In this document: piece after piece, positions 42,601-60,057 of the stretch
How the letters are laid out: each line of letters starts with the position of its first letter
How positions within the stretch are numbered: the stretch's first letter is position 1
Assembly (NCBI GenBank): GCA_964605705.1
Contig: CAZSDW010000010.1
Span: 28,879 to 92,878 of the forward strand
Direction: 5' to 3'
Source of the DNA: an uncultured bacterium
Lineage (GTDB): Bacteria > Fidelibacterota > UBA2242
DNA: 64,000 nt
The notes under the pieces: model-generated
Told to the model about the DNA's origin: nothing
Database searches by the model: none
The model's input: the letters and a program-made list of their open reading frames with translations, nothing else
Program-made: the position numbers and the translations under genes

Positions 42601-45185
42601 CGATCATCGATCCGACCGGCAAGAAACGCATTTTATATTCCCAGAAATTCAGAATCGAGCAACCGGACGGTCCGCCTATCCTGGGTGGGATCGCCTGGGA
42701 TATTACCCGCCTGAAGGATACGGAATCCGCCCTGCAGGAGAGTCAGTCACGGTTTTTAGCCTTCATGGACCATATTCCGGGAGGCGTCTTTATAAAAGAC
42801 CACGCGAGTAAATTCGTCTATCTGAACAAATACATGCACGACAACTTCAGTACCGATGATCGCTGGATCGGAAAATCGACGGATAAACTGTTCCCCGAAG
42901 AAACCAGCAAACGGATGATTCGTGAAGATCAAGCCGCTTTGGAAAAAGGCATGCTCGTGATTGAGGAGCCGGTCGAAGACAGATTCGGAAATGACCATAT
43001 ATATCAAACCTACAAATTCAGAATCGATCAGGATGGCGGGAAACCATTGCTGGGCGGGATTACGATGGATATTACCGAGCGCAAAAAAGCAGCGGAAGCC
43101 ATCCGTGAAAACGAACGTTTTCTCCAAAATACCTTCGATGCAATCCAGGATGGTATCTCGGTGCTGGATCGGGATTTGACGATCATTAAAACCAATCAGT
43201 GGATGAGTGAACAGTATGCTCACAACAAACCGTTAGTGGGCAAAAAATGCTACCAGGCTTACCAGCAGCGTGATTCAATCTGCCCCTGGTGTCCCAGCGT
43301 GAAAGCCCTTCAAACCGGAGCAACACATACCCAAGAGGTTCCCTATCCCAACGAGGAAAATCCCACAGGCTGGATCGATCTGTCCGCATTTCCGCTGAAG
43401 AATGCACAGGGCGAAGTGACCGGCGTCATCGAATACGTCAAAGATATCAGCAAACGCAAAAAAGCCGAAGAAGCCCTGCGCAAAAGTGAAGCCCAGTATC
43501 GGGAACTTATCGACGGGATGATCGAAACCGTCTGGATCATCGACTTTGACGGAAATTTGCTGGATGTCAACCACAGTGCCACTGAAGTACTGGGCTATAC
43601 CCAAAAAGAGCTGTTGGACATTGGGTTGTACGGTATCGATTCCTCACTCAAGAAAGAAGCTATCCGAGCACTTGCCGGAGCAATGCCCAAGGATGAAACC
43701 CAGATGTTTGAAACATCCCATCGGAAAAAAGACGGCACGATCTTCCCCGTAGAAGTCTATTCCAGCCTGGTAACCTATCATGGAAAACCGGCTATTCTGA
43801 GCATCGCCCGCGACATCACCGATCGTAAAAGGGCTGAAAAACAGCTGCAAGAAAGTGAAGAGAAACATCGTCTTATCAATCAAAATATTCCGGTACTTGT
43901 TTATGCCGCCCTTCCCGATGAAAAATCAACCAATATCTTTTTATCGGGGCAAGCTCAGGAACTGACGGGTTACAACAGTGAAGAGTTGCTTAATGACAAC
44001 TCCATCTGGGAAAAAATGATTCACCCCGATGATGTTGAAAAGGTTTTGAAAGCGATAAGCGCTCACCGAAAGGCTAAATCGATTCTCAATATCGAATATC
44101 GGATCATAACAAAATCCGGTAAGCAAAAGTGGATTCATGACAAAGCCAAACCGCTGCTGGATGAAAACGAAACCATTATCCTAATTCAAGGATTCATGGA
44201 AGACATCACCGAGCGCAAGCAGGCGGAAGAGGCGCTGAAAAATCAGGAACATTTTATTTCTGCCGTCGCGGATACCAATCCGGCGCTGATCTATGTCTAT
44301 GATATGGAATCCAACAGCAATGTTTACAGCAATACGGGGATTGAAAAATTGCTGGGATATTCCGCTCCTGAAATACAGGCAATGGGCAGTGATATGTTTC
44401 CCCGGCTGATCCACCCTGATGATCTTCCTGGTGTCATTAAATTCCAAAAGGAAATCCTGGCAGCCAAAGATGAAGACGTTCTGGAAATCGAATACCGGAT
44501 GAGGCACCGCAATGGAAAATGGGTCACTCTGCACAGCTATGAAAGGGTATTTCTGAGAAATCCCAATGGTTCTGTGAAACAAAAGGTTGGCGTTGCTCTC
44601 GATGTCACCGAGCGCAAACAAACCGAAGAGGAACTTCACAGTTCCCGATATATGCTGCAGACCGTGTTGAATACATTGCCCACCGGTGTTTTCTGGAAAG
44701 ACACCAAGCTGAATTACCTGGGTGCCAACCGCGCCTGGCTTGAAACAGTCGGAGTTGAATCAGTGAAAGATATAATCGGAAAAAGCGATTATGACCTGCC
44801 ATGGGAAAAGTCTGAGGCGGATTCATTCCGGGCTGACGATACCAAAATTATAGAATCTGGCTTCCCACGCTATAACATCATCGAGCCCTATTCGCGTGCC
44901 GATGGAACCCACGCTTGGGCAAAGACCAATAAAGCCCTCCTGCGAAGCAATGACGGTCAAATCATCGGAGTGCTCGGTACCTATGAGGACATCACAACCC
45001 AAAAGCAGGCGGAAGACCAACTTCATCAGAAAATAACCGAACTGGAGCGCTTCAACAAGGTCATGGTGGGACGTGAAAACCGCATGATCGAACTGAAGCA
45101 GGAAATCAACGAACTCTGTGATAAACTGGGAATTCCTCATAAATATCAGGCATCGAATGATATAAATAACATGAATTCGACATAA
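39684..45185 (+). CDS. giant multi-PAS protein (14 PAS/PAC repeats, 1833 aa), no catalytic output, GRENRMIELK tail
   Basis: 14 repeated PAS starts, most closed by DIT-type PAC ends; ends ELERFNKVMVGRENRMIELKQEINELCDKLG. Confidence 0.88.
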   Translation: MSKSMSKSSAKLPNGISNEQLRLIVENANEAIFVLQNNSLVYSNSKAVEIIGYPVEKIRNTPFTEFIHPDDRSMVMDNYKKRLSGKNIQNIYSFRLINSAEKVVWTQVNSVLIQWNGKAAVLVFATDITALKATEESVKISEERYYDLLGTIPDGVFVINIKGIVTQCNRRFEELVGYDRSEIIGKHITDLPTVKKQDLPQYLKLIGSIFRGHKEKTTEFKWIHKNGTERLGEARYKIRKEPGKVPELFIIFHDITLQKLADKALKESEEKYKKIVEIAHDAIVIHTDGKIVYANPATVRLSGANSINDLIGKPVIDFVHPDYRAVTIQRIQKLEKGENIAPVFKEVFLHFDGSPLPVEVSGSRTTFNGKPSIQLFIRDIRDHLKQQEALVESERKWRELFENMLDGWFSNDINGKYLEYNQAFLDMLGYPAEELRQKTHREITPEKWHGFEDEIVNKILKQKGFTGIYEKEYLHKDGRIIPVEISIHQIKDDNGKPIGTWGIAHNIIEKKASQDALAIREFLNQITLKNISDAIFITNDRGKFTFICTDPESLFGYSKSELLKMGNVSKLFEIGKIDTTLLKTRGEIQNIDYAITDKSGTKKVILVNIKNVAIGDGTRLFTCREITDRKKAEIALRRSENRYRVLFDTAPAGIITVDPEGKIREVNQEMLKFLGSPSAEQTKAINMFTFPPLVEAGISRSLQECLETGNSFVCEHPYQSKWGKSVVLHYHLAAIKDDNGANIGVQAIALDYTKYRQAEDELRKSEEFLSTIFNYSNIGVYLIKVTADGNYIYEGINPIQEKLLAISNDFVKGKRPEDLVSLLGKEAVDSLLAIFDECVQKKESLESESFVPEGPAKGWWFNQLRPIMDDQNRVIRLIGNGMKTTELKEAQSALRASEARFSTFTNHIPAAVFIKDQECKTLYLNRYMQRLFNADDSWLGKTFADMIPGEIGRQILDDDRQALRTGFIEKEKTIIDPTGKKRILYSQKFRIEQPDGPPILGGIAWDITRLKDTESALQESQSRFLAFMDHIPGGVFIKDHASKFVYLNKYMHDNFSTDDRWIGKSTDKLFPEETSKRMIREDQAALEKGMLVIEEPVEDRFGNDHIYQTYKFRIDQDGGKPLLGGITMDITERKKAAEAIRENERFLQNTFDAIQDGISVLDRDLTIIKTNQWMSEQYAHNKPLVGKKCYQAYQQRDSICPWCPSVKALQTGATHTQEVPYPNEENPTGWIDLSAFPLKNAQGEVTGVIEYVKDISKRKKAEEALRKSEAQYRELIDGMIETVWIIDFDGNLLDVNHSATEVLGYTQKELLDIGLYGIDSSLKKEAIRALAGAMPKDETQMFETSHRKKDGTIFPVEVYSSLVTYHGKPAILSIARDITDRKRAEKQLQESEEKHRLINQNIPVLVYAALPDEKSTNIFLSGQAQELTGYNSEELLNDNSIWEKMIHPDDVEKVLKAISAHRKAKSILNIEYRIITKSGKQKWIHDKAKPLLDENETIILIQGFMEDITERKQAEEALKNQEHFISAVADTNPALIYVYDMESNSNVYSNTGIEKLLGYSAPEIQAMGSDMFPRLIHPDDLPGVIKFQKEILAAKDEDVLEIEYRMRHRNGKWVTLHSYERVFLRNPNGSVKQKVGVALDVTERKQTEEELHSSRYMLQTVLNTLPTGVFWKDTKLNYLGANRAWLETVGVESVKDIIGKSDYDLPWEKSEADSFRADDTKIIESGFPRYNIIEPYSRADGTHAWAKTNKALLRSNDGQIIGVLGTYEDITTQKQAEDQLHQKITELERFNKVMVGRENRMIELKQEINELCDKLGIPHKYQASNDINNMNST

Positions 45186-45253
45186 GAGATGAATGTTTAT
45201 ATTTTGAAAAATAAACCGTTAAAACGGTTATTATTATGAGGTTTAAATTAACT

Positions 45254-45352
45254 CCCGAATTTCTCAGCAGGGACTCCTGTAGGAGAATTCGGGGGATGCA
45301 CCTAATTTTTACTAAGAATTCAACTGTTTCAACAGTTTCCATAGGTGATTTC
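45254..45352 (-). repeat. 99-bp structured repeat, copy 1 (inverted relative to 52800-52898)
   Basis: reverse complement matches 52800-52898 at 95/99 positions; internal CCCGAATT/AATTCGGG hairpin and AACTGTT-N2-AACAGTT palindrome. Confidence 0.9.
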
Positions 45353-45417
45353 ATTATCTTTCTCTTTCATCGAACTCACGTTAAATAAACAATCCAATTG
45401 AAAATAGAGGATAAGCA

Positions 45418-48348
45418 ATGACGGCAAATTCCAAACCAGCCAGATCTAAGATCAATGCGACCAAGCCCTTTTTTGTCGTCGGAATCGGCGCATCTGCCGG
45501 TGGCCTGGAAGCACTGGGTAACTTTTTTACCAAAGTAAGCCCGAAACCGGGCACCGCGTTCGTCATTATTCAGCATCTCAGCCCGAGCTATAAAAGCAGC
45601 ATGGCGTCTCTCCTGACCAGATATACCGATCTGCCTGTCGCTGAAATCATCGACAGTATGCCGGTGAAATCCAATCATATTTACCTGAATCCTTCGGATA
45701 AAAACGTCGCCCTGTTTAGCCGGGTATTTCAGCTGAGCGACCCGGCACCCAAAGCCGGGATCAACCTGCCGATCGATCATTTTTTCCGCTCCCTGGCGGA
45801 TGACTGTCAGGAACAGGCAGTCGGCATTATTTTGTCCGGTACGGCGTCCGATGGTTCAGCCGGCATCAAAGCCATTAAGGAGCACGGCGGCATGGTGATG
45901 GTTCAACAGCCTGACAACGCCCAATACCCCGGCATGCCCCAGAGCGCCATCAATACCGGTCTGGTGGATGTCATTCTGCCAGTCGAGGAATTGCCTGCCA
46001 GCCTGCTAAAATACGTCCGGCATCCGTTATTAAAAAAACGTAGCACCGACGCTGATCAACAAAGTATTTTTCAGGACAATATCCGGAAAATCTTTCACTT
46101 CATCCGCAGCAAAACGGGACACGATTTCAGCCAGTATAAACAAAACACGATCCGGCGGCGGGTCGAACGGCGGATGGCGATTCACCAGATTGCCGAATTG
46201 CCGGATTATATCCGGTATCTCGAAAAAACTCCTTTGGAAGCCGAAACCCTGTTCCGGGAACTGCTGATTGGCGTGACCGGGTTTTTCCGTGATCCGGAAG
46301 CCTTCGATATCCTGAAAGAGACTATCCTGCCGAAATTTCTGGAAACGAAATTACCGGACGCAACTCTGCGTATCTGGATCGTCGGCTGCTCCACCGGCGA
46401 GGAAGCCTACTCCCTGGGAATCCTCCTCTCTGAAGTAATGAATGCTCTGAAAAAACAGTTCAACTTTCAGATTTTCGCCAGTGATATCGATCCACGGGCG
46501 ATCGAAACAGCACGCCTGGGTGTTTACCCGGAAAGCATTGTTTCCGATGTCAGCGAAGAACGCTTAAGACATTATTTCAGCAAAGTCGATCATCATTTCC
46601 GGATTAAAAAATCCATTCGCGACATGGTGGTTTTTGCCGATCACAACCTGATCAAAGACCCGCCCTTTTCCAGGCTGGATCTGCTGGTCTGCCGGAATCT
46701 GCTCATCTATTTGGACGGCGCTCTCCAAAAGAAGATATTCCCCATATTTCACTTTACCCTGAATCCCGACGGAATTCTCTTTCTGGGATCGTCGGAAAGT
46801 ATTGGAGTCCACACCGATCTATTCAAGCCCCTGAATCCCAAATGGAAAATCTTTCAAAAGAAGCTCAACCTGGATGGAAAAGCCAAAGAATTATACGACT
46901 ATCAACCGAAAAACAACAAGTCAATAAAAATGAATGGTCCCAACAAAAAATCACCGAGTATTGCCGATGTCATCCATAAAACCGAACGCCTGATTTTTGA
47001 TACGTTTGCCCCGGCAGCCGTCATTATCAATGAAAAATCGGAGATTCTGCATTTCATCGGTTCTACCGACAAATTCCTGGCGCCGCCCGTCGGGCAAGCC
47101 TCTTTTAATCTGCTGAATATGGCGCGGGAAAATTTAAAGTATCAGTTGTCGGTACTAATCACCAAAGCGCTGCAACAGAAAACCATCACATCCGCCAGTG
47201 GTATTCGCTTCGCATCGGATAATGTCAACCGGGTTGCTGATATCACAGTGCGGCCCCTTTCCGAGGACAATCTGCCCGAAGGATTGATGCTGGTGATTTT
47301 CGAAGATATGACTGCCACCGGTAAGCCAAAAGCTGCGGTAAGTGTTTCATCCGGCACAAACCCCCGTAACAGGAATGTTGCGCAACTCGAAAAGGAACTG
47401 CAATCCACCCGGGAATACCTCCAGAGCACCATTGAGGAAATGGAAACTTCCAATGAGGAACTGCGCTCCGCCAATGAAGAATTACAATCGGTTAATGAAG
47501 AGCTGCAAAGCGCCAATGAAGAACTGGAAACTTCCAAAGAGGAACTCCATTCCACCAATGAGGAGCTCAGCACCGTCAACGCGGAACTGCAGATGAAAGT
47601 GGCAGAATTGAGCCAGTCCAACGACGACATGAACAACCTGCTGGCGGCTAGCCAGATCGGGACCGTCTTCCTGGACAATAATCTCTGCATCAAACGCTTT
47701 ACGCCCGCCATGCAGAATACGATCAACCTGATCACTTCCGATATCGGCAGACCCATTGATCATATCACGACCCAGTTTCAGGATTTGAAAATCAGTGACT
47801 ATGTCCGGGAAGTCCTCAATACGCTGCACCAGAAAGAGTGTGAAATCCAGACCCGCGAAGGGCATTGGTACAACATGCGGATTCTGCCCTACCGCACCAC
47901 AGAAAATGTCATCGACGGCGTGGTGATCACCTTTTTCGATATTCAATCCGTCAGACAGACCCGAAAATTACGCCGCCTGGCAACCATCCTGCAGGATTCC
48001 GATGATGCGATTCTGGCATTTGACCTTACCGGAAATATCATTGCCTGGAACCGGGGCGCCGAAAAGATGTACGGCTATAGTGAGCCAGAAGCCCTCCGGA
48101 TGAAAATATATGCAATCACCCGAAAAAAAGACCACGCTGAATTCGACCGCTTGATTCAAACCATAAAAGCCGGGAAACCGGTTGAGCCCTATAATGCAAT
48201 ACGGATCAGCAAAACCGGACAGAAACTGGATGTCCTGGTCACGGCTACGACACTCCGCGATGATCAGGGAGTCCCGGTAGAAGTGGCTATCACCGAGCGA
48301 AATCTTTACTGGCTCCCGACCGAAAAAGCAAAGAAAGCATCCTCATGA
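45418..48348 (+). CDS. CheB methylesterase-CheR methyltransferase fusion with coiled coil and PAS domains
   Basis: CheB GASAGG/QHL/GTASDG triad; CheR GVTGFFRD, GCSTGEEAYS, CRNLLIY; NEEL heptads; two C-terminal PAS; no kinase. Confidence 0.92.
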   Translation: MTANSKPARSKINATKPFFVVGIGASAGGLEALGNFFTKVSPKPGTAFVIIQHLSPSYKSSMASLLTRYTDLPVAEIIDSMPVKSNHIYLNPSDKNVALFSRVFQLSDPAPKAGINLPIDHFFRSLADDCQEQAVGIILSGTASDGSAGIKAIKEHGGMVMVQQPDNAQYPGMPQSAINTGLVDVILPVEELPASLLKYVRHPLLKKRSTDADQQSIFQDNIRKIFHFIRSKTGHDFSQYKQNTIRRRVERRMAIHQIAELPDYIRYLEKTPLEAETLFRELLIGVTGFFRDPEAFDILKETILPKFLETKLPDATLRIWIVGCSTGEEAYSLGILLSEVMNALKKQFNFQIFASDIDPRAIETARLGVYPESIVSDVSEERLRHYFSKVDHHFRIKKSIRDMVVFADHNLIKDPPFSRLDLLVCRNLLIYLDGALQKKIFPIFHFTLNPDGILFLGSSESIGVHTDLFKPLNPKWKIFQKKLNLDGKAKELYDYQPKNNKSIKMNGPNKKSPSIADVIHKTERLIFDTFAPAAVIINEKSEILHFIGSTDKFLAPPVGQASFNLLNMARENLKYQLSVLITKALQQKTITSASGIRFASDNVNRVADITVRPLSEDNLPEGLMLVIFEDMTATGKPKAAVSVSSGTNPRNRNVAQLEKELQSTREYLQSTIEEMETSNEELRSANEELQSVNEELQSANEELETSKEELHSTNEELSTVNAELQMKVAELSQSNDDMNNLLAASQIGTVFLDNNLCIKRFTPAMQNTINLITSDIGRPIDHITTQFQDLKISDYVREVLNTLHQKECEIQTREGHWYNMRILPYRTTENVIDGVVITFFDIQSVRQTRKLRRLATILQDSDDAILAFDLTGNIIAWNRGAEKMYGYSEPEALRMKIYAITRKKDHAEFDRLIQTIKAGKPVEPYNAIRISKTGQKLDVLVTATTLRDDQGVPVEVAITERNLYWLPTEKAKKASS

Positions 48349-51300
48349 AAAACAAATCCAATCCTTCATCAGATAAAACCAATCTGCGTCAACAGGCGGA
48401 AAAAAAATTAGGCGGAAAAACCGATCAGGTACAGGATTTCGCGAAGATGAGCCCTGACGAGATTGCCCGGACGGTTCATGAACTCCGGGTTCACCAGATC
48501 GAGATGGAGATGCAGAATGAACAGCTGCGCCAGACCCAGATGGAGCTGGAACAGACCCGGGATAAATACAGCGATCTCTATGATTTCGCACCCGTGGGGT
48601 ATTGTACCCTTTCCGAGAAAGGCACAATCACGGAATGCAACCTGACCCTCTGTTCGCTCCTGAACATCGACCGCAGTTCCCTGGTTGGAAAACATTTTTC
48701 AGCTTTTATCCACCCGGAAGATCACGATAATTATTACCGATTTTGGAATCACCTGCAAAAGGAAAATTCCGCACAACAATCCCAGTTTCGTATGCAGCAA
48801 AAAAACGGAAACCGTTTTTTTACTGACTTACATGCCATGGTCATTCCGGAATCGGAAACAGAAAAACGGCATATGCGTCTGGCGGTGACCAATATTTCTT
48901 CCCAAAGAGCCGCCGATGACGCACTGCACCAGGAACGGGATCTGCTGAAAGATATCACCGATACCAGTCCCGTGGGGATAACCGTTGTCGATACCGTCGG
49001 TCAGATCACCTTTGCCAATGCTGAAGCCGAGAAGATCCTCGGTCTGGAAAAGGAATCCATCACCAGCCGGAGGTATAACGATCCGCTCTGGAAAATCACC
49101 GATTACAGCGGTAATCCCTTTCCCAACGAACAACTGCCTTTTGCAGTCGTTAAAAAAACCCTCAAGCCCACTTACAATATTCAACACGCCATCCAGTGGC
49201 TCGATGGACAGCGCACCCTGCTCAGTATCAACGCCATGCCCCGGTTTGATGAATCGGGACATTTTCAGGGCATGGTTGCCGCGATTCAGGATGTCACCGA
49301 GAAGATCAGGACTGAACGGGCGTTAAATCGGGAAATGGAACTGGCTCAGCATTACCTGAATATCGCCGGAACCCTTTTTGTCGCGATCGATAAAAACCAG
49401 ATTGTCACCATGATAAATCCCAAAGCCTGTGAAATCCTGGGCTATCCCGAAAATGAAATTATCGGTAAAAACTGGTTTGACCATTTTGTGCCCAAAGGCA
49501 ACCGGAAAGACGTCAAAAAAGTCTTTGATAAAATCATTGCCGGGCAATTGACGCCGGTCGAATTCTATGAAAACCCGGTGCTGACTAAATCCGGCAAAGA
49601 ACGCCTGATTACGTGGCATAATTCACTGCTTTATGATGATAATGGTTCCATCGGCGGAATCCTGAGCTCCGGCGAAGATATCACCCGGCACTACGAATCC
49701 CAGGAAAAACTGCTGGAACAGTTTCAGTTCCAGCAAACCCTGATCAACACGATTCCAAGCCCGGTTTTCTATAAAGATAACCAGGGGAAATATACCGGCT
49801 GCAATAAAGCTTTCAGCAATTTTATCGGATTACCCCAGGAAAAGATTCTGGGCAAAACAGCCTATGACATTGTCCCCGGGGAATTCGCCGATTTTTATCA
49901 CAAAAAAGATTTGGAACTCATTGAGCATCCCGGAATCCAGCATTACGAATGGAAAGTCAAATCCGCCGACGGCAACATTAGAAATGCCATTTTCGATAAA
50001 GCCACATTATACGGAGCCAACAAACAGCCCGCTGGTATGATCGGAATCATTTCCGATATCACCGAATTGAAGCAAGCGGAACAGGAAATCCGGGAAAGCC
50101 ATAGTGCCACCCTGAATATTCTTGAGGATTTTAACCGGGAATTTAATATAAGAAAAAGAACGGAAGCTGCCTTAAAAAAAAGCGACGAACGTTTCAATCT
50201 TGCCATGCAGGCAACGTCGGATGGTATCTGGGACTGGAACCTGATCAGCAACGCCATATACTATTCCCCCGGTTGGAAAAGCATGCTGGGATACGCCGAC
50301 GATGAAATCAAAAATGAATTTTCCGAATGGGAACGCCTGACTGACCCGGAAGATTTGGAAAAAACCTGGCAAATGCTGGATGAGCACATCAGCGGTAAGC
50401 GTGACCGTTTTGAGATTGAGTTTAAAATGCGCCATAAAGACGGTCACTGGGTGGACATTTTATCCCGCGCCAACGCGGTGTTCGATCAAAATGGCAAAGC
50501 CATCCGTCTGATCGGTACCCATGTGGATATCTCCGAGCGTAAAAATCTGGAACAGCAGATTCGGGACGCTTATAATTTCAACCAGTTGATTATTGACACC
50601 TCGCCGGTGGGTGTCTGGATCTATGATGAAACCGGTCAAACCATTATGATCAATCCGGCTGGCGTTGCGCTGAGCGGCGGCGATTATGATCTGCTGATCC
50701 GCATGAACTGGCGTAAACTGGAGTCATGGAAAAAGACAGGGCTGTTCGATGCCGCCGAAGAAGTACTGAAAACCGGCAAAATGGTCAAAAAGGAAATCCA
50801 TGCCGTCAATACAGTCAACACAGAAGTCTGGTATGAAGCGTTGCTGCTCTCGGTCCAATTCAAGGGGAAGAAGCATCTGCTGATGATGACCTATGATGTC
50901 AAAGAGCAGAGAATTGCCGGAAGAGCCTTGCGGGAGAGCGAGGAACGCTTCCGGCAGCTGTTTGACAACATGCAAAACGGCGTAGCGATTTATACGCCTG
51001 TTGATGATGGCAAAGAATTTATCTTTAAAGACATTAATAAAGCCGGTGAAAAACTCAGCCAGGTCAAAAAGGAAGCTATCGTCGGCAAAAAGCTATTGGA
51101 TATATTCCCCGGTGCCGCTGCGTACGGCTTGATCGATGCTTTTCATCAAACTGTCAAGACTGGTAAACCCGCGCATGTTGACCTCAAAATGTACCAGGAT
51201 CAACGAATGTCTCAATGGGTGGAAAACACGGTTTATGCCTTGCCATCCGGCGAGGTCGTTGCTATCTATGAAGATACCAGCGAACGCCATAGATATCTGG

Positions 51301-52724
51301 ATGCTTTACGGGAAAATGAGGCGAAATTCCGGGAGATTTTCGAATTTGCCGGCGAGGGAATCATCTATGTAAGCCCGCAAGGGCAGATTCTGGAAGTGAA
51401 CCAGTCGCTCCTGAAAATCGTAAACCTGGATTACAAGGAAGTGGTCGGACTGAACGTCACGAAGCTGGCAAAAAAACTGCTGAGATTACAGGACAGCAAA
51501 TGGATCCTGCCACTGGTCACTAAAGCGCTGAGCGGCAAGAAAATCAAAAACTTTGAAATCGAATTCAGGAACCGGATTCTGGAAATCGGCGCTTCCTACA
51601 ATAAAAAATCCGGTTGCACCACCGGGATACTCCGGGATATTACCGAGCGGAGGCAGATGGAAAATCAAATCCGGAAAAGTGAAAAACAGTACCACCATCT
51701 GTTCGACAGCATGCTGGACGCTTTTGCCCTGCATGAAATGATTTACGACAATAACGGTAAACCGGTGGATTACCGGTTCATCACCGTCAACTCCGCCTTT
51801 GAGAAATCGACCGGACTCAAAAAAGAACAACTGATTGGAAAAACTGTCCTGGAAATCATGCCCGGCACCGAGTCATATTGGATTAGAATCTACGGAGAGG
51901 TCGTTCGTACCGGAAATCCGAAACAGTTTGAAAATTATTCACGGGAATTAAACCGGTATTATGAAGGCGTTGCCTACTCGCCGGAGTCGGGTAAATTCGC
52001 CACCATTTTCCAGGATGTAACGGAGCGGATATTGGCGACAAAAAAACTCCGTGTCAGCGAAGAACGCCTCCGGGCACTGGCAACCCATTTACAGAATATT
52101 CGCGAGGATGAACGCAAAGCCATTGCCCGGGAAATCCATGATGAAATCGCCCAGATTATGACTGCCCTGAAAATCGATCTGTCAATCCTGGGTTCCAATT
52201 TATCCGATAGCTACCCGGAAATATCCGCTCAATACGGACCCGATATCCAGCTGATGAAAGACCTGATTGATACGACTATCAAAAAGATTCGGGACATGAT
52301 TCAGCGCCTGCGCCCCGAGGCTCTGGATTCCATGGGATTGATTGAAGCAATGCGCTGGTCTATGAATGAAATGACCCGGGACAGCCAACTCACCGGACAC
52401 TTCAGAAGTTATCTCAAGCAACTGGATCTGGCTGGCGATCAGGCACTGGCATTTTATCGTATTTTTCAGGAAGCTGTTACCAATACAATCCGGCATGCTG
52501 CCGCCGCAAATATCCATGCCTCGCTCAGTAAAAGGAACCGGCAGTTGATTTTAAAGATCAATGATGACGGAATTGGGCTTGATCTTGAGAAAATAAACAA
52601 ACGTGACAGCTATGGCTTGACCGGAATGCGCGAACGGGCGCTATCTCTCAACGGAACGCTCAGGATTGAGAGCCAACCAGGGAAAGGCACTACAATAATT
52701 CTAACGGTTCCGCTCAACGAATAG
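48345..52724 (+). CDS. multi-PAS (9) sensor histidine kinase, HisKA_3/NarX type
   Basis: N-terminal HELRVHQIEMEMQNEQL coil; AREIHDEIAQ H-box; NTIRHA, DDGIG, GLTGMRER; ATGA-coupled to cheBR; internal ATLNILED. Confidence 0.92.
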   Translation: MKNKSNPSSDKTNLRQQAEKKLGGKTDQVQDFAKMSPDEIARTVHELRVHQIEMEMQNEQLRQTQMELEQTRDKYSDLYDFAPVGYCTLSEKGTITECNLTLCSLLNIDRSSLVGKHFSAFIHPEDHDNYYRFWNHLQKENSAQQSQFRMQQKNGNRFFTDLHAMVIPESETEKRHMRLAVTNISSQRAADDALHQERDLLKDITDTSPVGITVVDTVGQITFANAEAEKILGLEKESITSRRYNDPLWKITDYSGNPFPNEQLPFAVVKKTLKPTYNIQHAIQWLDGQRTLLSINAMPRFDESGHFQGMVAAIQDVTEKIRTERALNREMELAQHYLNIAGTLFVAIDKNQIVTMINPKACEILGYPENEIIGKNWFDHFVPKGNRKDVKKVFDKIIAGQLTPVEFYENPVLTKSGKERLITWHNSLLYDDNGSIGGILSSGEDITRHYESQEKLLEQFQFQQTLINTIPSPVFYKDNQGKYTGCNKAFSNFIGLPQEKILGKTAYDIVPGEFADFYHKKDLELIEHPGIQHYEWKVKSADGNIRNAIFDKATLYGANKQPAGMIGIISDITELKQAEQEIRESHSATLNILEDFNREFNIRKRTEAALKKSDERFNLAMQATSDGIWDWNLISNAIYYSPGWKSMLGYADDEIKNEFSEWERLTDPEDLEKTWQMLDEHISGKRDRFEIEFKMRHKDGHWVDILSRANAVFDQNGKAIRLIGTHVDISERKNLEQQIRDAYNFNQLIIDTSPVGVWIYDETGQTIMINPAGVALSGGDYDLLIRMNWRKLESWKKTGLFDAAEEVLKTGKMVKKEIHAVNTVNTEVWYEALLLSVQFKGKKHLLMMTYDVKEQRIAGRALRESEERFRQLFDNMQNGVAIYTPVDDGKEFIFKDINKAGEKLSQVKKEAIVGKKLLDIFPGAAAYGLIDAFHQTVKTGKPAHVDLKMYQDQRMSQWVENTVYALPSGEVVAIYEDTSERHRYLDALRENEAKFREIFEFAGEGIIYVSPQGQILEVNQSLLKIVNLDYKEVVGLNVTKLAKKLLRLQDSKWILPLVTKALSGKKIKNFEIEFRNRILEIGASYNKKSGCTTGILRDITERRQMENQIRKSEKQYHHLFDSMLDAFALHEMIYDNNGKPVDYRFITVNSAFEKSTGLKKEQLIGKTVLEIMPGTESYWIRIYGEVVRTGNPKQFENYSRELNRYYEGVAYSPESGKFATIFQDVTERILATKKLRVSEERLRALATHLQNIREDERKAIAREIHDEIAQIMTALKIDLSILGSNLSDSYPEISAQYGPDIQLMKDLIDTTIKKIRDMIQRLRPEALDSMGLIEAMRWSMNEMTRDSQLTGHFRSYLKQLDLAGDQALAFYRIFQEAVTNTIRHAAAANIHASLSKRNRQLILKINDDGIGLDLEKINKRDSYGLTGMRERALSLNGTLRIESQPGKGTTIILTVPLNE

Positions 52725-52799
52725 CGCTCGGAAATAAGAATTGGGAATTTACCCGGTGTTTATTAAAATAACGTGAGTTCGATCTAAAACAATGCTAAG

Positions 52800-52898
52800 G
52801 AAATTACCAATGGAAACTGTTAAAACAGTTGAATTCTTAGTAAAAATTAGGTGCATCCCCCGAATTCTCCTACAGGAGTCCCTGCTGGGAAATTCGGG
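52800..52898 (+). repeat. 99-bp structured repeat, copy 2
   Basis: 95/99 identity to the reverse complement of 45254-45352; CCCCCGAATT/AATTCGGGGG 10-bp hairpin (52857-52900). Confidence 0.9.
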
Positions 52899-53030
52899 GG
52901 CTATCCCAAAATATCCAAACTCAGGAAACCGTTTCAACGGTTTTTTATCTATCCGGAGAGACAGTGATTGGTTAAATCGAACTCACATTAAAATACCTTA
53001 TAATCAGCAAACCAGGCAAGGAATTGCAGT

Positions 53031-53666
53031 ATGATTACCATATTAATTGCCGATGATCACAGCCTGATCCGGGAAGGATTCAAAAAAATTCTCAGCCGCG
53101 AGACGGATATCAGCGTTATCGGAGAAGCTCAAAATGCCAGTGAGGTAATGGACTTCTTGCAGAACAAGCATTGTGATATTCTTGTGCTGGATATAACCAT
53201 GCCCGGGAAAAGCGGACTGGATATATTGGCGGATATCAAGATTCAGTATCCCGATATCAACGTTCTGGTCCTCAGTATGCATGCCGAAGAGTACTATGCC
53301 CTGCGAGCCTTAAAAGCCGGCGCAAAAGGGTATCTGACCAAGGAAAGCGCACCGGACGAGCTGCTCAAAGCCATCCGAAAAATCGATTCCGGACGGATGT
53401 ACCTCAGCCAGGATGTGGCGGAGCAGCTGGCTTACAACCTGGGTGATAAAACCGATAAACTGCCCCATGAAAATCTTTCCAATCGTGAATTCCAGGTCCT
53501 GAATCTCATCGCGAATGGACGATCGATTTTAGATATCAGCAATGAACTCTCGATCAGCGCCAGCACCGTCAGCACCTACCGTCAGCGGATCATGGAAAAA
53601 CTAAACCTTCACAGTACTGCCGATATCATTCTGTATGCCGTCAATAATCATCTGCTGGATGATTAA
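53031..53666 (+). CDS. NarL/UvrY-family response regulator (REC + LuxR HTH)
   Basis: ADDH, LDITMPG, YLTK, LSNREFQVL...STYRQRIMEKL. Confidence 0.93.
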   Translation: MITILIADDHSLIREGFKKILSRETDISVIGEAQNASEVMDFLQNKHCDILVLDITMPGKSGLDILADIKIQYPDINVLVLSMHAEEYYALRALKAGAKGYLTKESAPDELLKAIRKIDSGRMYLSQDVAEQLAYNLGDKTDKLPHENLSNREFQVLNLIANGRSILDISNELSISASTVSTYRQRIMEKLNLHSTADIILYAVNNHLLDD

Positions 53667-53828
53667 TGGACAAAGTTATGATAAAATCGCTTCAGTCGTG
53701 GGCGTTGTGGGGATTCAGCTACAGGCGTGTAGCCAAATGGCGACAGAAAAATTACAATATTTACGACAGAATTACCTATAAATCTTTCATATACTGCTAA
53801 TGGTCCGGGCATTCGGGGGCAACCAATC

Positions 53829-54185
53829 ATGCAAGTGTTTATAGTTGACGACTCAGAAATATTACGCAATAGTCTGAAACGGCTGCTTAAATCCGTTGAA
53901 AAATGCCGGATTTGCGGCGAAGCCGCCCGTGTATCCGAGGCTGTCCCGGCAATCCTCGAATCAAAACCCGACGTTGTGATCCTCGACGTGCAACTCGCCG
54001 ATGGTCTGGGTTTTGACGTTTTCGACGAAGTTAGCAAGTCCGGCTTCAGACCCGTCTATCTCACTCTGACGAATTACCCAACTCCCTACTATAAAAAATT
54101 GTGTAAAGACCGGCAAATTCCCTACTTTTTTGACAAGACCACGGATTTCAATAAGGTCGTCAGCACCTTAAAATCCTTCAATTAA
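53829..54185 (+). CDS. single-domain response regulator
   Basis: IVDDS, ILDVQL (phospho-Asp), LT, FDK. Confidence 0.85.
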   Translation: MQVFIVDDSEILRNSLKRLLKSVEKCRICGEAARVSEAVPAILESKPDVVILDVQLADGLGFDVFDEVSKSGFRPVYLTLTNYPTPYYKKLCKDRQIPYFFDKTTDFNKVVSTLKSFN

Positions 54186-54441
54186 ACCGAAATTACAGCA
54201 GCTTCGTTTACAGAATACCAGCCTTCCATAAAATCTTCCGGTAGTCATTAGTGACGTCTGTAGATCAATCACTACGGGAACATCGCCAATAATCGACACA
54301 AAAATCGTTAGTTCTACTATAGTACGATACCTGCAGGGCTAATAGTTTATCGCTGCAATATGATTGGGATTTGAAATGAATAAAAACAACCAACAATCCG
54401 ACAGACTTATCAGTAAAGGCAAAAGGCAAAGGGAAACAGCT

Positions 54442-54813
54442 ATGAAGATTCTCATCGTTGACGACTCAAAAATCATTTATGATCGTCTTCAAAAACTCGT
54501 TGTGCGTCAACTTGATAAAAATGACAGTATCACTAACTTGGCGGAACTCGACAATCTCCTGATGGATGTTTACCATATGTCGCCCGATGTCCTGATTTTG
54601 AACACCTATTCCCTGCGGGGCACCCTGATCGAATCAATCCGGGCTATTAAAACCATTAAGCCTCTGACAAAAATCATTTCTCTGACTGAGTTTTATGATG
54701 AAACCTTTGAGACACTCCTGAAAAATGCCGGTTCGGATTTCTTTATTGACATTTCCTCCGGGATTGAAAGTGTCCCGGACATTCTAAACAGTTTTAAAAA
54801 TCAGTCCAATTGA
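54442..54813 (+). CDS. atypical (pseudo-)receiver domain protein
   Basis: MKILIVDDS start, but ILNTY replaces ILD and FIDI replaces FxxK; start 54442 (track 54364). Confidence 0.7.
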   Translation: MKILIVDDSKIIYDRLQKLVVRQLDKNDSITNLAELDNLLMDVYHMSPDVLILNTYSLRGTLIESIRAIKTIKPLTKIISLTEFYDETFETLLKNAGSDFFIDISSGIESVPDILNSFKNQSN

Positions 54814-55009
54814 AATGTCAATCGAACACGACATATTTAAATTAAGCGAAATATCTTTCACTTTTTCAAGGTCGCATGTACACATTTATTAGAAAAATGG
54901 TTCAGATACAAATGTTGAGAGACGGCTTTTTATTTTTAATTGGCTGATCTCCTTACGATCGGCTTGTTTTAATATTTGTCAGGCTAAAAATGGTTAAAAC
55001 GGGGGGTCT

Positions 55010-58000
55010 ATGTCGCGATCTTCTCAATCTCAAAGCGGTGAATCAAAGCAACTATCCGAAAAACTGAAAGTCAGTGAAGAGCGCTTTCAAAAACTCTATA
55101 TGACAATGACCGAGGGGCTTTGTCTGCATGAAATGATTTACGATGAGCAGGGGCAGGCAGTGAACTACAGAATCCTCGATGTCAATCCGGCTTACGAACA
55201 GATCATCGGTGTTCAGCGGGATACCATCGTTGGCAAAACCGCGACCGAAGCCTACGGTACCGATACAGCGCCCTATCTTGAAGGATATGCCAAAGTAGCC
55301 AAAACCGGTAAATCCTTCAGTTTCGAAACCTACTTTCCCCCCATGGAAAAACATTTTCGGATCAATGTTTTCCGTCCGCAGAAAAACCAGTTCGCCACTG
55401 TTTTCGAAGATGTCACCGAAAGAAAACACAGTGAGGAACAGATCGCCATTTTCAAACAGTTTGCCGAAGCCTCAAACCAGGGATTCGGAATGGCAGATTT
55501 GAATGGAACTACTCTGTATGTCAATCCGGCACTATGCGAGATGCTTGCAATCAGTCCCGATGAAATTCTTGGCAAATCATTCGCGCCTTTCTACACCGAG
55601 GCTGACCAGCAGAAAATCCAGGACGTCGTTATTCCCGCAATCCTCAAAACCGGCAAATGGGAAGGGGAATTGCAGTTCAAATCAAAAAATGGACGGAATG
55701 TTATTACATCGGAAAGTTATTTTCTGATCAAAGACGAAAATGGCAATCCCCGCTTTATCGCCGATGTAATTTCCGACGTGACCGCTAAAAAAGAAAAAGA
55801 GCTGAGACAGTTTCAAATAGCTGCCCTGGAAAAACAGGCTGCCATTATCGATGCCATTACGGACGCCGTCGTTGTTCTGGATATGAATGGCGTTCATCAA
55901 TCGGTGAATCCTTCTTTTCTTAAATTAACCCAATGCAGTAAAAAAAGAACTGATCGGCTCCAATATTGCTGAATTATTACCAAAAATAATTGCCGCTGAC
56001 GATCTTCAAAATATTCTGACGAATTTAAAAGGAATGACGTCAGGAAAAGACCCTTCCCCGCTTACCTTTACATTCATCCGAAAAGACGGCAGTCAAATTC
56101 CTGTCTCCCTGAAAATCAATTATCTGCTCGACAAGAATGGAAACCCGCAAAATATTATCGGCAGTTTTCATGATATCAGCGATATCCTGCAGGTGGAAAG
56201 AGAACTGGACCAGATGTTCAATCTGGGAACCCCGGTATGTCTGATCGGCAAGGATTATCAAATGCTGCGGGTGAATGACAACTTCTGTTCCTATTTTGGC
56301 ATGAAACGGGAAGATGTCGTCGGTAAAATCTGTTATGAAATCTGGCAGGAAACGGTTTGTAATACTCCCGATTGCATGCTGCAACAAATTTTATCCGGTA
56401 AAGACCGTGACAATTATGATGTTACCGAAAAAATGTTGCCGGATGGCAGAGTCATATCCTGCCGGGTGCAGGCATTCGCTTATAAAGATATCAACGGTAA
56501 TGTCATCGGTGTCGTCGAAAGTTTTCAGGATATAACAGACCTTAAAAACACTGAAAAAGTTCTGCTTGTAAACGAGGCAAAATTCCGGAGTGTTTTCGAA
56601 AACTCGCCATTGGGTAAATCAATGACCGGTATCGACGGCAGCCTGAATATGAATAAACGGTTCTGTGAAATCCTGGGATACAGTGACGAAGAATTGCGAA
56701 AAAAAGCATGGCAAGAGATTACCTATCCCGATGATATTCAGGAAAGTACGGATATCATTCAGTCATTAATTGACGGAAAAAGAACCCACGCCCACTATGA
56801 AAAACGATATCTCCATAAAAACGGTCAAATCGTATGGACGGATATCAACACAACCCTCCAGCGGGATAAAAACGGAAAGCCGCTCTATTTCATTACAACT
56901 GTTGCAGACATTACCAATCGTAAAAAAGACGATATCGAATTATATAATTCCCGCCAGATGCTGCGCCTGGTTCTGGACAACATTCCCCAGCGGGTTTTCT
57001 GGAAGGATATCAACTTAAATTATCTTGGCTGCAACCAGGCGTTTGCCCAGGACGCTCATTTAGACAGTCCCGATGGCATCATCGGAAAAGATGATTATCA
57101 ATTATCCTGGAAGGATACCGCGGAACTGTACCGTTCCGACGATCAGGAAGTGATCCGCACCAATACTCCCAAAATTGGCTTCGAAGAACCCCAGAGCCTG
57201 CCCGAAGGCGGTCAGCTCTGGCTGCGCACCAACAAAATTCCGCTTCAGGATATGAACGGTAAAGTCATTGGTGTGCTGGGAACGTATGAAGATATCACTC
57301 TTCAGCGTGAAGCCGAAGAAAAAATCCGGCTCAGCGAACAGAAATTCCGGACACTGTTTGAAGCGGAACCCGATGCCATTATGACTGCCGATCCGGCAAC
57401 CGGCTTATTATTGGAAGTGAACAAAGCCGCCACCCGGCTTTTCGGGCGTCCGGCAGAAAAGCTGGTCGGATTACATCAAACCGAGCTGCATCCACCGGAA
57501 ATGCGCGACAATATAATCAAAAAATTCAGGGAAATCACAATCGAAGGCTCCACTAAGCCACATGAAATTCTGGTCCAGAATGCGGACGGAAAAATCATTC
57601 CGGCAGAAGTGGTCGGCTCGGTTGCCGAACTGGGCGGTAAACCCGTCGCCATCGGCATTTTCCGGGATATTACTGATCGTAAAAAAACAGAGCAAGAAAT
57701 CCTTCGGGAAAAGAAAATCACGGATTCAACTATTGATGCTGTTCCGGGAATCTTTTATCAGATTTCACCGGAAGGACGCTTTGTTCGCTGGAACAATCAA
57801 TTCGAAAGTATCAGTCAATACTCCAGTGAAGAAATTGGCAAAATGCATCCCCTGGATCTCTTTAATGAACCGGAAAAGGAAAAAGTCGGATCAGCCATTC
57901 AAAAAGTGTTTACCGATGGATATGCCGACGTGGAAGCAGATTTCATCGCCAAAGACGGAACCGCGACGCCGCACCTGTTCACCGGCAAACTTTTTATAAT

Positions 58001-58223
58001 TGAAAATGAACCTTACCTGATCGGCATGGGCATGGATATCAGCGATCTCAAACGGATCGAGACCAACCTGCGCAAAAGCAACGCTGAACTGGAAGCCTTT
58101 AATAAAATGGCGGTTGGCAGGGAAAAACGGATGATCGAATTGAAACGAATGATTAATGAACTGTCAGAGAAATTGGGTGAAAATCCACCTTATGACATGA
58201 CCTTTTCGGAAGAAATGCTTTGA
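55010..58223 (+). pseudogene. multi-PAS (8) protein with GREKRMIELK tail, split by +1 frameshift in an A7 run
   Basis: deleting one A at 55940-55946 gives SKKELIGSNIAELLP... in frame with ORF 56034-58223 (about 1070 aa); no kinase domain. Confidence 0.8.
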
Positions 58224-59617
58224 AAATACCGGGAGATCATCTATTCATGAACTACCACATTAAAGACATAATCGATCTCGACAAGATGCAAGCACTTTTG
58301 CAGAAATTCACAGACGCTACCGGAACCAGCTCGGCATTAATCGATCTCGAAGGTAATATACTAGCCACATCAAAGTGGCAAGATATCTGCGCTCAATTTC
58401 ACAGAGTTCATCCCGAAATGAAAAAAAGATGTATTGAGTCCGATGTGACTCTGGCTAATCAGATCAGTCAAGGTCAAAAATATAACGTTTATCATTGTCT
58501 GAACGGCATGGTGGACGCCGCTGTTCCCCTCTATATTGATCAAAAGCACGTAGCTAATTTATTTATCGGTCAGTTTTTATCGGAAGAACCCGACATCAGA
58601 TTCTTCCGCAAGCAATCAAAAGACTTTGGATTTAATACAGAAGATTATCTGACGGCACTTTCGAAAGTACCGGTCATACTAGATGACGAAGTCAAATACA
58701 GAATGGAATTTTTAGCAGACCTGGCATCTTTCTTTGGAGAAGCCGGATTGACTAAACTGAACCTGCAAAAACTGATGGCTGAACAGGAACACCGGATTGA
58801 AGAGCGTACCCGGGACCTGAAAGACGCCCAGGTTGCCACGCTGAATATGATGCAGGACGCCGAAGAAGCCCGCCATGACGCCGAAAAAGCCAATGAAAAT
58901 TTGAAAATATTGATGGCGGAGCTGAAACGCTCCAATGAAGAACTGGAACAGTTCGCCTATGTCGCTTCCCATGACCTGCAGGAACCGTTGCGGATGGTTT
59001 CCAGCTATACCCAACTCATTGAACGGCGTTACAAGGATAAACTTGACCAGGACGGGCATGATTTTATCGAATTTGCCGTCGATGGCGCCAACCGCATGCA
59101 ACGGCTGATCAATGACCTGCTGACCTTCAGCCGGGTGACGACACGCGGGAAAGAATTCAATTTTACTGATTTGAATTCTGTGCTGGGTCAGGCAATCGCC
59201 AATCTGCAACAGCGCATTGATGAGACCCATGCCGTAATAATCAATGATGAGCTGCCCAATCTGCCAATCGACGAAGGACAAATTACCCGCCTGTTTCAGA
59301 ACTTACTGGACAATGCTACCAAATTTCACGGCAAGGAAGCTCCCCGGCTTCACATTACCGCCAAAGAACAGGAAAAGGATTGGCTGTTCTGTTTCCGGGA
59401 TAATGGCATCGGCATTGATCCGGGATACAAGGATCGTATTTTTATTATTTTTCAACGGCTGCATGCCAAAAGTGATTTCCCCGGAACCGGCATCGGTCTG
59501 GCGCTCTGCAAGCGCATTGTCGAACGCCACGGTGGTAAAATCTGGGTGGAATCGGAACCGGGCAAGGGCGCGGCATTTTGTTTCACAATACCCAAAAGGG
59601 AGAATATAGGAGAATGA
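58220..59617 (+). CDS. PocR-domain sensor histidine kinase (Cph1-like HisKA/HATPase)
   Basis: PocR pattern [10 protein letters not shown]...RCIESD...HCLNGMVD; ATLNMMQD coil; [13 protein letters not shown]-box; DNGIG, GTGIGL; start TTG 58220 or ATG 58247. Confidence 0.9.
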
Positions 59618-59622
59618 GTGAT

Positions 59623-60057
59623 ATGTTTGCACATTTGATTGAGATTTTATTAGTCGAAGACAATCCGGGTGACGCCCGGCTGGCGAAGGAAGCCCTGAGA
59701 GAAAGCAAGATTAAAAACAACCTGCACAGCGTCGGTGATGGTGTGGAAGCCATGGCATTTCTGCGAAAAGAGGACAAGTATAAAGATATGCCGACGCCGG
59801 ACCTGCTGCTGCTGGACCTGAATCTGCCCCGAAAGGATGGTCGCGAAGTGCTGGCGGAAATCAAAGAGGATAAGGACTTAAAACGGATTCCCGTAGTTAT
59901 CCTGACCGTTTCCAAAGCCGAAGAAGATATTCTGAAAACTTATGATCTCCATGCGAATTGTTATATTACCAAGCCCCTGGATCTGGACCAGTTTATGAAA
60001 GTGGTAAAAAGCATCGAAGATTTCTGGCTGAGTATCGTCAAACTGCCGCCTAAATAA
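59623..60057 (+). CDS. Rcp1-like single-domain response regulator 1
   Basis: [40 protein letters not shown]; start 59614 or 59623. Confidence 0.92.

Follow-up and report, generated by a model that had tools for sequence, protein, structure and literature searches.

A conserved C-terminal tail of PAS proteins without output domains and an ALN box in the histidine kinases encoded next: a candidate connector between detached sensors and kinases

PAS domain S-box proteins devoid of an output domain are abundant in genome censuses, and the route by which they signal has been a puzzle. Several histidine kinases are regulated in trans, e.g., GacS by RetS via heteromerisation of the dimerisation and histidine phosphotransfer (DHp) domains, KinA by Sda and KipI, and LuxQ by LuxP. 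In polyketide and non-ribosomal peptide synthases, the docking domains consist of a C-terminal helical module that matches one in the protein encoded next. The S-helix, characterized by an ERT signature at positions c, d and e of its central heptad, links two domains of one chain (PMC1592074), while in split histidine kinases, e.g., Hik36-Hik43, the DHp and catalytic domains are placed on separate proteins (PMC7656254, PMC3591291). Here, we describe a stretch of 64,000 nucleotides (nt), further called the window, from an uncultured Fidelibacterota bacterium of the UBA2242 lineage (assembly GCA_964605705.1, contig CAZSDW010000010.1), in which two PAS arrays end in a conserved helical tail and a kinase encoded downstream of each carries a conserved segment that we call the ALN box. 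Such tail/box pairs could represent trans-acting sensors of histidine kinases and, if docking of the tail on the box holds, a new general connector system.

Upon back-translation, the tail pattern G-R-E-x-R-M-I-E-L-K matches the window solely at 45069-45098 and 58116-58145, and the pattern A-T-L-N-[IM]-[LM]-[EQ]-D solely at 50106-50129 and 58835-58858. Neither pattern occurs in dinucleotide-preserving shuffles of the window, and the number of ATLN matches expected by chance is 0. The two tails are 45% identical across 69 residues, with 30 invariant columns. Profile searches of all window open reading frames (ORFs) of at least 50 aa located the tail solely in the two PAS arrays and the ALN box solely in two kinases; neither was detected in the hybrid kinase encoded at 60501-63854. 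According to Pfam, both arrays comprise PAS families only, with no HisKA or HATPase domain, and the kinases belong to different families, one combining PAS, HisKA_3 and HATPase domains and the other PocR, HisKA and HATPase. A sequence-only reading of this DNA had already reported all of this, i.e., the two occurrences of each motif, the kinase-less nature of the arrays, the unlike kinase families and the lack of both motifs in the other proteins of the island, and on these points it proved correct. Its further statement, that the next kinase downstream of each array bears the ATLN motif, agrees with the gene order of both pairs, but in one of them a CheB-CheR gene intervenes.

All donor and kinase genes, tails and boxes described below for the window lie on the plus strand. 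Donor A (39684-45185) encodes 1833 aa with around 12 PAS domains and no output domain, Pfam recognizing PAS families only. Its tail (44955-45179, residues 1758-1832) has the core GRENRMIELK at 45069-45098 and the terminus LGIPHKY, was detected with a profile E-value of 5.8e-31, ends 1 residue before the C-terminus and belongs to the class found in Bacteroidota and Ignavibacteriota. Acceptor kinase A (48345-52724; 1459 aa) is composed of four PAS domains, the ALN box, four further PAS domains, HisKA_3 and HATPase (Pfam). The box (50064-50165, residues 574-607; core ATLNILED at 50106-50129; profile E = 4.4e-10) is part of the helix between two PAS domains and is covered by no Pfam domain. The gene in the 3159-nt gap between donor and kinase (45418-48348, plus strand) encodes a CheB-CheR-coiled coil-PAS_10-PAS protein of 976 aa, for which Pfam gives CheB_methylest at 7.2e-54, CheR at 8.4e-56, CheR_N at 2.5e-16 and PAS_10 at 7e-31. 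It carries the CheB methylesterase and CheR methyltransferase domains in one chain and is thus a CheB-CheR fusion; it has no tail of its own, and its stop codon overlaps the start of kinase A. The same succession of a tail gene, a CheB-CheR gene and an ALN gene is found in locus L002.

For array B the sequence-only reading was incomplete, as the ORF that ends in the tail turned out to be the downstream part of a longer gene (55010-58223), frameshifted at a run of seven A (55940-55946). The upstream part (55010-55972) encodes two PAS domains and the first half of a third, and the downstream ORF (56034-58223; 729 aa) the second half-PAS, around five PAS domains and the terminal tail (Pfam). When one A is dropped from the run, the ORFs join as ...LTQCSKK/ELIGSN... 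and the split PAS is restored. Since an identical run is present in contigs of four independent salt-marsh runs, the frameshift is regarded as real in this population. Its context, AAA-AAA-AGA, could permit a +1 slip, and a real disruption is equally possible. Tail B (57996-58214, residues 655-727; core GREKRMIELK at 58116-58145) belongs to the class that accompanies PocR kinases, gives a profile E-value of 5.8e-37 and ends 2 residues before the C-terminus. Acceptor kinase B (58247-59617) has the organization PocR-ALN box-HisKA-HATPase and measures 456 aa from ATG 58247 or 465 aa from TTG 58220. Pfam scores of 6.2e-49 for PocR (PF10114), 3.9e-12 for HisKA and 2.2e-26 for HATPase_c define it as a PocR-domain sensor kinase. 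The 456-aa product is found in two public assemblies and its start is preceded, 9 nt upstream, by a Shine-Dalgarno-like GGGAGA (58232-58237); no public gene call matches the TTG start. The distance within pair B is either −4 or +23 nt depending on the start codon, and the TTGA overlap reported earlier, which requires TTG 58220, is probably absent, because the ATG start leaves a 23-nt spacer past the stop codon. ALN box B (58793-58894; core ATLNMMQD at 58835-58858) is part of the helix between PocR and the DHp, its Asn lying 42 residues (6 heptads) before the phospho-histidine. Both window donors thus end in the tail and lack an output domain, and in both pairs a box gene of the same strand follows at less than 3.5 kb.

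The tail is a helix of around 55 residues at the C-terminus of sensor proteins without an output domain, with the consensus L-x3-N-x-E-L-E-R-F-N-R-x-A-V-G-R-E-L-R-M-I-E-L-K-x-E-[IV]-N-x-L-x3-L-G-x-P-P-[RK]-Y. Its profile retrieved 19,702 matches at E ≤ 1e-3, and 5,359 at E ≤ 1e-10, from 1.84 billion representative proteins. In 143 of the 146 listed best matches, whose median length is 599 aa, the chain ends within 30 residues past the tail core. A scan of one genome per species yielded 80 tail loci, and the tail was found across around 20 phyla, archaea included: Bacteroidota, Ignavibacteriota, Verrucomicrobiota, Kiritimatiellota, Lentisphaerota, Planctomycetota, Acidobacteriota, Nitrospirota, Chloroflexota, Alpha-, Beta- and Gammaproteobacteria, Campylobacterota, Spirochaetota, Cloacimonadota, Omnitrophota, Gemmatimonadota, Patescibacteria and Methanosarcinales. 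Among 134 distinct tails, R1, E2 and K9 are invariant, N-5, N13 and Y25 are kept in more than 89%, and L-9, F-6, N-5, V-1, G0, R4, M5, I6, E7, L8, E11, I/V12, N13, L15, G20 and Y25 are strongly conserved. The heptad core is formed by L-16, L-9, F-6, M-2, R1, M5, L8, I12, L15 and L19, with the invariant Arg at position 'd', and the module terminates in an aromatic-bearing peptide past a Gly-Pro break. As many of the invariant residues fall on the outer face of a two-stranded coil, the tail would seem to have a conserved binding surface, beyond what a structural coil demands.

Most tail-bearing proteins (donors) are PAS arrays, as presumed at the outset for all of them, but REC-PAS proteins, membrane proteins with solute-binding or CHASE domains and at least nine CheB-CheR-PAS proteins (L012, L016, L028, L048, L055, L091, L099, L117, L142) also end in the tail. 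Three proteins (P0017, P0071, P0085) have the organization PAS-tail-linker-transmembrane (TM) segment-CHASE-TM-coiled coil-tail with no box; they look like fusions of two donors in which each tail was kept. No model in Pfam or NCBIfam covers the tail or the ALN box. A sequence search of PDB with both profiles gave nothing below E = 0.2 (the best tail match being at E = 0.5), and a word-indexed homologue search returned only four fragment matches for the tail motif and none for the fusion segment of protein P0076. Literature searches for the motif strings, CheB-CheR fusions, stand-alone PAS proteins and split kinases found no description of the tail/box pair, and the papers matched by the strings were all unrelated. 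We considered the tail as a bZIP-like DNA binder and rejected it, as its N, A and R are spaced in another way and the motif contains acidic residues.

The ALN box, in turn, is a segment of around 35 residues of a coiled-coil signalling helix, found mostly in the histidine kinase encoded next, with the consensus R-x-A-A-L-N-[LMI]-M-[EQ]-D-A-x2-A-R. With a strict expression, the 80 tail-selected loci yielded 43 ORFs that contain it, many of which begin right where the tail gene stops; the profile raised this to around 70 ORFs. In 134 distinct boxes the core positions are A-3 (100%), A/T-2, L-1, N0 (98%), L/M1, M2, E/Q3 and D4 (100%), preceded by L-16, A-13, N-12, L-9, S/A-6 and R-5 and followed by A5, a hydrophobic residue at 6, A8, R9, A12, E13, A15 and L19. 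Position +3 is occupied by E in 121, Q in 7 and D in 3 of the 134 sequences, with small residues on its flanks. Small residues (Ala/Ser) also make up the a/d core. The outward-facing positions are those of N, E and D, all invariant, and of a second hydrophobic stripe (L-1, M2, V6). Roughly one third to one half of the 134 boxes are preceded, around 19 residues upstream, by an S-helix ERT (E-21, R-20, T-19).

The proteins bearing the box (acceptors) have no other element in common, as their remaining domains vary (PocR, PAS, GAF, REC, HAMP, DUF4118, sigma-54 activators, HisKA or HisKA_3). Among 57 complete box proteins, HATPase_c is present in 45, HisKA in 35, REC in 26, GAF in 23, HisKA_3 in 9, HAMP in 4 and PocR in 3, and two are sigma-54 activators. 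The box may be located anywhere from residue 26 to residue 1152. One kinase (L103:247-1461) starts with six tandem boxes, 21 residues (three heptads) apart, directly before the DHp, and another protein (L054:2738-3991) has two; both look like multi-socket acceptors.

The two modules are linked by their gene order, examined in both directions. The forward test used the 80 loci of the one-genome-per-species scan, chosen by the tail alone, and a box gene was counted when located on the same strand within 3.5 kb. Such a gene was found downstream of 50 of the 73 tail genes that are followed by at least 3.5 kb of sequence, 29 of the 50 being adjacent, and upstream of only 3 of 67; in around ten of the adjacent pairs the two genes share exactly 4 nt. 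Of the 61 kinase-like ORFs that follow a tail within 3.5 kb, 39 have the box, compared with 3 of the 40 located elsewhere in these loci (odds ratio 22, Fisher p = 7e-9). On this background rate we rejected the option that the box is a generic S-helix of most kinases, which the sequence-only reading had itself named among its refutations. An independent distribution of the motifs, also named there, is excluded by a linkage that is tight in both directions. The reverse test relied on independent metagenome loci chosen only by AALNxMED[AS], the scan starting from eight class II boxes and concerning that class only. A gene with a strong terminal tail was located within 3.5 kb upstream of 21 of 28 distinct box genes (8 of the 21 adjacent) and downstream of none (0/27). 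As the tail family accounts for around one in 10^5 protein clusters, this corresponds to an enrichment of several orders of magnitude. Up to four tandem tail genes precede one box gene (L024, L025).

A search of plasmids for the pair gave a single match, in Aeromonas caviae KAM479 (L163; NZ_AP026896.1, 2573478-2585603), where the gene of a 729-aa tail protein overlaps by 4 nt with that of a 1323-aa box protein. The replicon of 4.9 Mb is filed as a plasmid, with only 18 annotated features in the PLSDB gene table. The pair is thus present in a cultivable genus; Azohydromonas lata, Cupriavidus numazuensis and Tangfeifania diversioriginum are further cultivable carriers.

Tail and box also occur in one chain. 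We found at least 12 natural fusions, in all of which the tail stands ahead of the box, as in the gene order. Three of them (P0076, P0009, P0006) consist of the tail, a low-complexity linker of roughly 20–45 residues and the box, while in nine others (P0010, P0012, P0016, P0036, P0041, P0045, P0057, L052, L076) tail and linker are followed by PocR and then by a box of the form A-[AS]-[LM]-[NS]-[LV]-A-E-D-A-x2-A-R, thus forming a single-chain version of the layout of window pair B. Other proteins, which we term relays, carry both box and tail in the organization REC-box-PAS-tail (L010, L070) or PAS-box-tail (L102, L108), and two (L111, L123) consist of REC, coiled coil, box, coiled coil and tail with nothing else. 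A modular plug-and-socket layer, as first envisaged for the window, fits with these fusions, the relay proteins and the kinases with up to six tandem boxes.

The modules keep a common register with the domains around them. Counted from the Thr of the PAS D-I-T, tail G0 lies 25 residues away in 107 and 32 in 24 of 156 cases, and in HisKA kinases from these loci the phospho-histidine is most often 32 residues away from D-I-T, i.e., in the same phase. Where the DHp directly follows the box, whole heptads separate the box Asn and the phospho-histidine in 22 of 29 cases; the values include 28, 35 (11 cases), 42 (5 cases, among them the window PocR kinase), 49, 70, 91 and 112. As these distances fall in the same phase, tail G0, box N0 and the histidine share one heptad position. 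Judged from such sequence registers, both motifs belong to rigid signalling helices, unlike floppy peptides, and the idea of the ALN motif as a free docking peptide was therefore given up.

Several tail classes are accompanied by their own box classes. Tails of the type VGRENRMIELK...L-P-K-K-Y go with boxes N-A-[ST]-L-N-L-[IV]-E-D-L, a class which includes window pair A, and tails VGRELRMIELK...P-P-R-Y-P-L-[DE]-F go with R-A-A-L-N-L-M-E-D-A. Window pair B, together with L060 and L061, represents a class in which AVGREKRMIELK...P-P-Y-D-L-S-F is found with A-T-L-N-M-M-Q-D-A and PocR. Bacteroidota operons contain a second class, in which tail II (A-T-I-E-R-E-[FL]-R-[IM]-x-E-L-R) is found with box II (A-M-L-Y-M-V-E-D-L-N). 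In locus L008 the order is a class I tail gene, a MEDS gene, box I-PAS-tail II, a protein with a solute-binding protein (SBP) domain, TM, PAS and tail II, and finally SBP-PAS-box II-HisKA-HATPase. The occurrence of two classes within one operon or genome is compatible with orthogonal pairing.

The motifs, their positions within the proteins, the gene-order linkage, the fusions and the heptad register are direct observations, and a functional link of some kind between tail and box is very likely. The reading that we prefer is that the tail docks directly on the ALN box, and we put its probability at roughly 0.55; the contact, the geometry of the bundle and the effect on the kinase are all inferred from sequence. 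Under this model the donor would dimerise and its two tails form a coiled coil, which would pack onto the ALN-box stretch of the dimeric signalling helix of the acceptor and thus give a four-helix bundle made of two proteins. Signal-dependent movements of the donor PAS stalks would pass through this bundle to the DHp of the kinase. For the window, this would mean that array A (39684-45185) signals to the HisKA_3 kinase (48345-52724) and array B (55010/56034-58223) to the PocR kinase (58247-59617). Direct contact is favoured because the box is the sole feature common to all acceptors, because the linkage is polar and the fusions have flexible tethers, because the invariant tail residues are mostly basic or polar, to be set against N, E and D of the box, and because the bulky tail core (F, M, M, L, I, L) contrasts with the Ala/Ser core and second hydrophobic stripe of the box. 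A broader scheme, in which sensors, relays, CheB-CheR-PAS-tail fusions and multi-socket kinases would be wired by trans four-helix bundles into a general plug-and-socket system, with orthogonal classes separating the chains, is more tentative, and we hold it at somewhat less than even odds.

Several observations weigh against direct docking. Around 30% of the tail genes lack a box gene within 3.5 kb and around 25% of the box genes lack a nearby tail, which implies that the pairing is not obligatory in cis. The partners of pair A are separated by a CheB-CheR gene and, likewise, those in Bacteroidota by a MEDS-domain gene. The ALN profile was built from tail-selected loci, and the independent pattern of the reverse test represents only the AALNxMED[AS] class. 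The correlations between tail and box classes are confounded by phylogeny, and mutual information with average product correction, underpowered with only 98 tail/box pairs, gave no register-specific signal. A structure prediction for the P0076 fusion, made without an alignment, reached a mean pLDDT (predicted local distance difference test) of 41, at which only the helix-loop-helix layout is readable. In PocR acceptors, moreover, the tail could bind the PocR domain in place of the box. The missing covariation and the sizeable minority of tails and boxes without a near partner would also be expected if the tail were a mere homodimerising, S-helix-like stalk, left at the place where a DHp would usually start, and the box an internal linker variant of one lineage of sensor modules, the two being co-inherited and duplicated as a cassette with no contact; the donors would then use PAS-PAS contacts or a different surface, or would leave the neighbouring kinase unaffected. 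This possibility gains from tail G0, which matches the HisKA phospho-histidine in its distance and heptad phase relative to the PAS D-I-T, from the alignment of tail F-6 with the conserved Phe before the H-box and from the Arg at core 'd', as in the S-helix (PMC1592074). It would leave unexplained, however, the tandem box arrays and the proteins made only of REC, box and tail, and it is hard to reconcile with surface residues (N-5, G0, E2, R4, E7, K9, E11, N13, Y25) that are near-invariant from Bacteroidota to Methanosarcinales, with a strictly polar linkage that spans acceptors sharing nothing but the box, and with the recurrence of flexible-linker fusions in several architectures. We therefore consider it unlikely, if still the most serious competitor of direct docking.

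The two motifs might instead be linked via a third component without touching each other, most concretely CheR and CheB, with the tail acting as a tether and the box E/Q as a methyl-accepting site, in a form of adaptation for soluble kinases. CheR is encoded in 26 of 161 loci, in four of which (L010:1975-2847, L024:8415-9236, L070:10179-11036, L073:10199-11023) a stand-alone CheR gene comes right after a tail gene, the CheB-CheR-PAS-tail donors number at least nine, and the CheB-CheR-PAS gene of the window stands between donor A and kinase A. The alternation of E and Q between small residues at box position +3 and the aromatic-bearing peptide past the Gly-Pro break of the tail point the same way. 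Yet a nearby CheR is missing in around 84% of the loci, the majority of donors are simple PAS arrays, and the fusions join tail and box without any CheR. On the coiled coil of chemoreceptors, the methylation consensus is [ASTG][ASTG]-x-x-[EQ][EQ]-x-x-[ASTG][ASTG]. The spacing of A-A-L-N-L-M-[EQ]-D-A does not fit it, since L-N and L-M occupy the required positions and an invariant Asp follows the E/Q, and we rejected the box as a methylation site of the chemoreceptor type. A link through a third component such as CheR and CheB thus appears improbable. Box-bearing kinases are candidate substrates of the CheB-CheR-PAS fusions. Least probable of all is an origin of the gene pairs from long multi-PAS kinases, by recent fission or as decaying remnants, with the motifs marking a preferred break point. 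Fused versions do exist, and window donor B is itself frameshifted. Nevertheless, fused forms are rare, 143 of the 146 best matches having the tail at their end, and the box is frequently found hundreds of residues deep in the acceptor (26–1152), behind unrelated domains, hence not at a break point. The low-complexity linker that follows the tail in the fusions speaks for the joining of two genes and not for an ancestral unsplit form, and the split arrangement is kept in one-genome-per-species representatives of many phyla. With the box mostly deep in the acceptor and the tail almost never internal, simple gene fission was rejected.

As for the other genes around the pairs, a response regulator of the REC-GerE (NarL/LuxR) type is encoded downstream of kinase A (53031-53666, plus strand; Pfam Response_reg 6e-30, GerE 3.5e-18) and, from what is generally known of HisKA_3 kinases, is likely its partner. 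Kinase B is directly followed by a gene for a REC-only protein (59623-60057, plus strand; Response_reg 9e-21; start taken from the public call in L161), a possible phosphoryl acceptor of this kinase. Besides the REC-GerE regulator, four REC-only proteins are scattered across the island (53829-54185, 54364-54813, 59623-60057, 60071-60496), which suggests a branched phosphorelay. Just past the stop codon of donor A, a weak hairpin with a T-rich stretch (45214-45229) could separate donor A transcriptionally from the CheB-CheR gene; the promoter and terminator scan was, overall, not above background. The gene between tail gene and box gene in L008 (10194-10844) encodes a MEDS-domain protein (Pfam E = 2e-32), and equivalent ORFs of 215–236 aa are present in the Bacteroidota loci L005, L006, L009, L015, L019, L037 and L040. 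MEDS and PocR have been described together as hydrocarbon-sensing domains, and both are present among the tail/box loci.

Compared with the described systems, the tail resembles the S-helix (PMC1592074) in emerging from a sensor domain as a parallel coiled coil with the heptad register kept and with a conserved Arg at core 'd'. However, it has G0-R1-E2 with R at 'd', so that the Arg is all it shares with ERT, and it is terminal in 143 of 146 matches, hence no linker of two domains. The ALN box does sit between domains, but itself lacks ERT and often follows one at −21 to −19, as an extra conserved segment. With the DHp and HAMP domains, the common trait is the proposed product, a four-helix bundle on the signalling axis of the kinase. 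The tail begins at the place of DHp helix 1, has the Phe of that helix and keeps the phase of the His, and the box is placed at whole heptads from the His. In DHp and HAMP both helices come from one chain, whereas here, as proposed, they would come from two proteins. Unlike an H-box, the tail has Gly (109), Asp (19) or Asn (4) at the His-phase position in 134 tails, and the protein ends around 15–45 residues past the tail core, with no second helix or ATPase domain. When hhalign was used to compare the tail with HisKA segments anchored on the H-box, the alignment was limited to the upstream helix and Phe-6, at 45% probability; the tail is, as far as its alignment tells, positionally equivalent to DHp helix 1, by which we do not claim homology. 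Pfam found no HAMP (PF00672) match on the tail or box regions of the window proteins, and HAMP occurs elsewhere in 4 of the 57 acceptors.

Like split kinases, the pairs distribute kinase function over two polypeptides encoded together, yet the window acceptors carry HisKA or HisKA_3 and HATPase_c on one chain (as for acceptors at large, 45 of 57 have HATPase_c and 35 HisKA), and the detached part is the sensor array. The NWETF-type pentapeptide tether of chemoreceptors (PMC7390727) is likewise C-terminal, past a flexible break and aromatic, with CheR/CheB genes nearby. The tail differs as a conserved helix of 55 residues plus a peptide, most of its loci are without CheR, and its carriers are not chemoreceptors. 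The trans-acting regulators of kinases come closer, in that a separate sensor or regulator modulates the kinase by contact with its helical core. Their interfaces, however, are individual and family-specific, while the tail/box pair recurs in around 20 phyla and many architectures and includes relay proteins and multi-socket kinases.

For annotation, the tail offers a candidate output for around 20,000 clusters of PAS proteins of the kind that has been a puzzle, and a likely partner, the box-bearing kinase encoded next. Two conserved, unannotated modules and a gene-order rule would improve annotation even if docking proved false. If it is true, it would explain how one kinase integrates many detachable sensors, suggest a role for the uncharacterised CheB-CheR-PAS fusion proteins and provide compact modules (of around 55 and 35 residues), in register with the PAS stalk and the DHp, with which two-component systems could be rewired. 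The docking domains of polyketide and non-ribosomal peptide synthases belong to an unrelated setting and are likened here by analogy alone: in both systems gene order mirrors the order of interaction and classes possibly give orthogonal pairing, whereas the ALN socket is mostly internal in a signalling coiled coil, and its purpose would be allosteric control instead of the hand-over of a substrate. Should the general plug-and-socket reading be true, tail and box would constitute a layer of modularity comparable to that of the polyketide synthase docking domains, reusable for attaching sensors to kinases.

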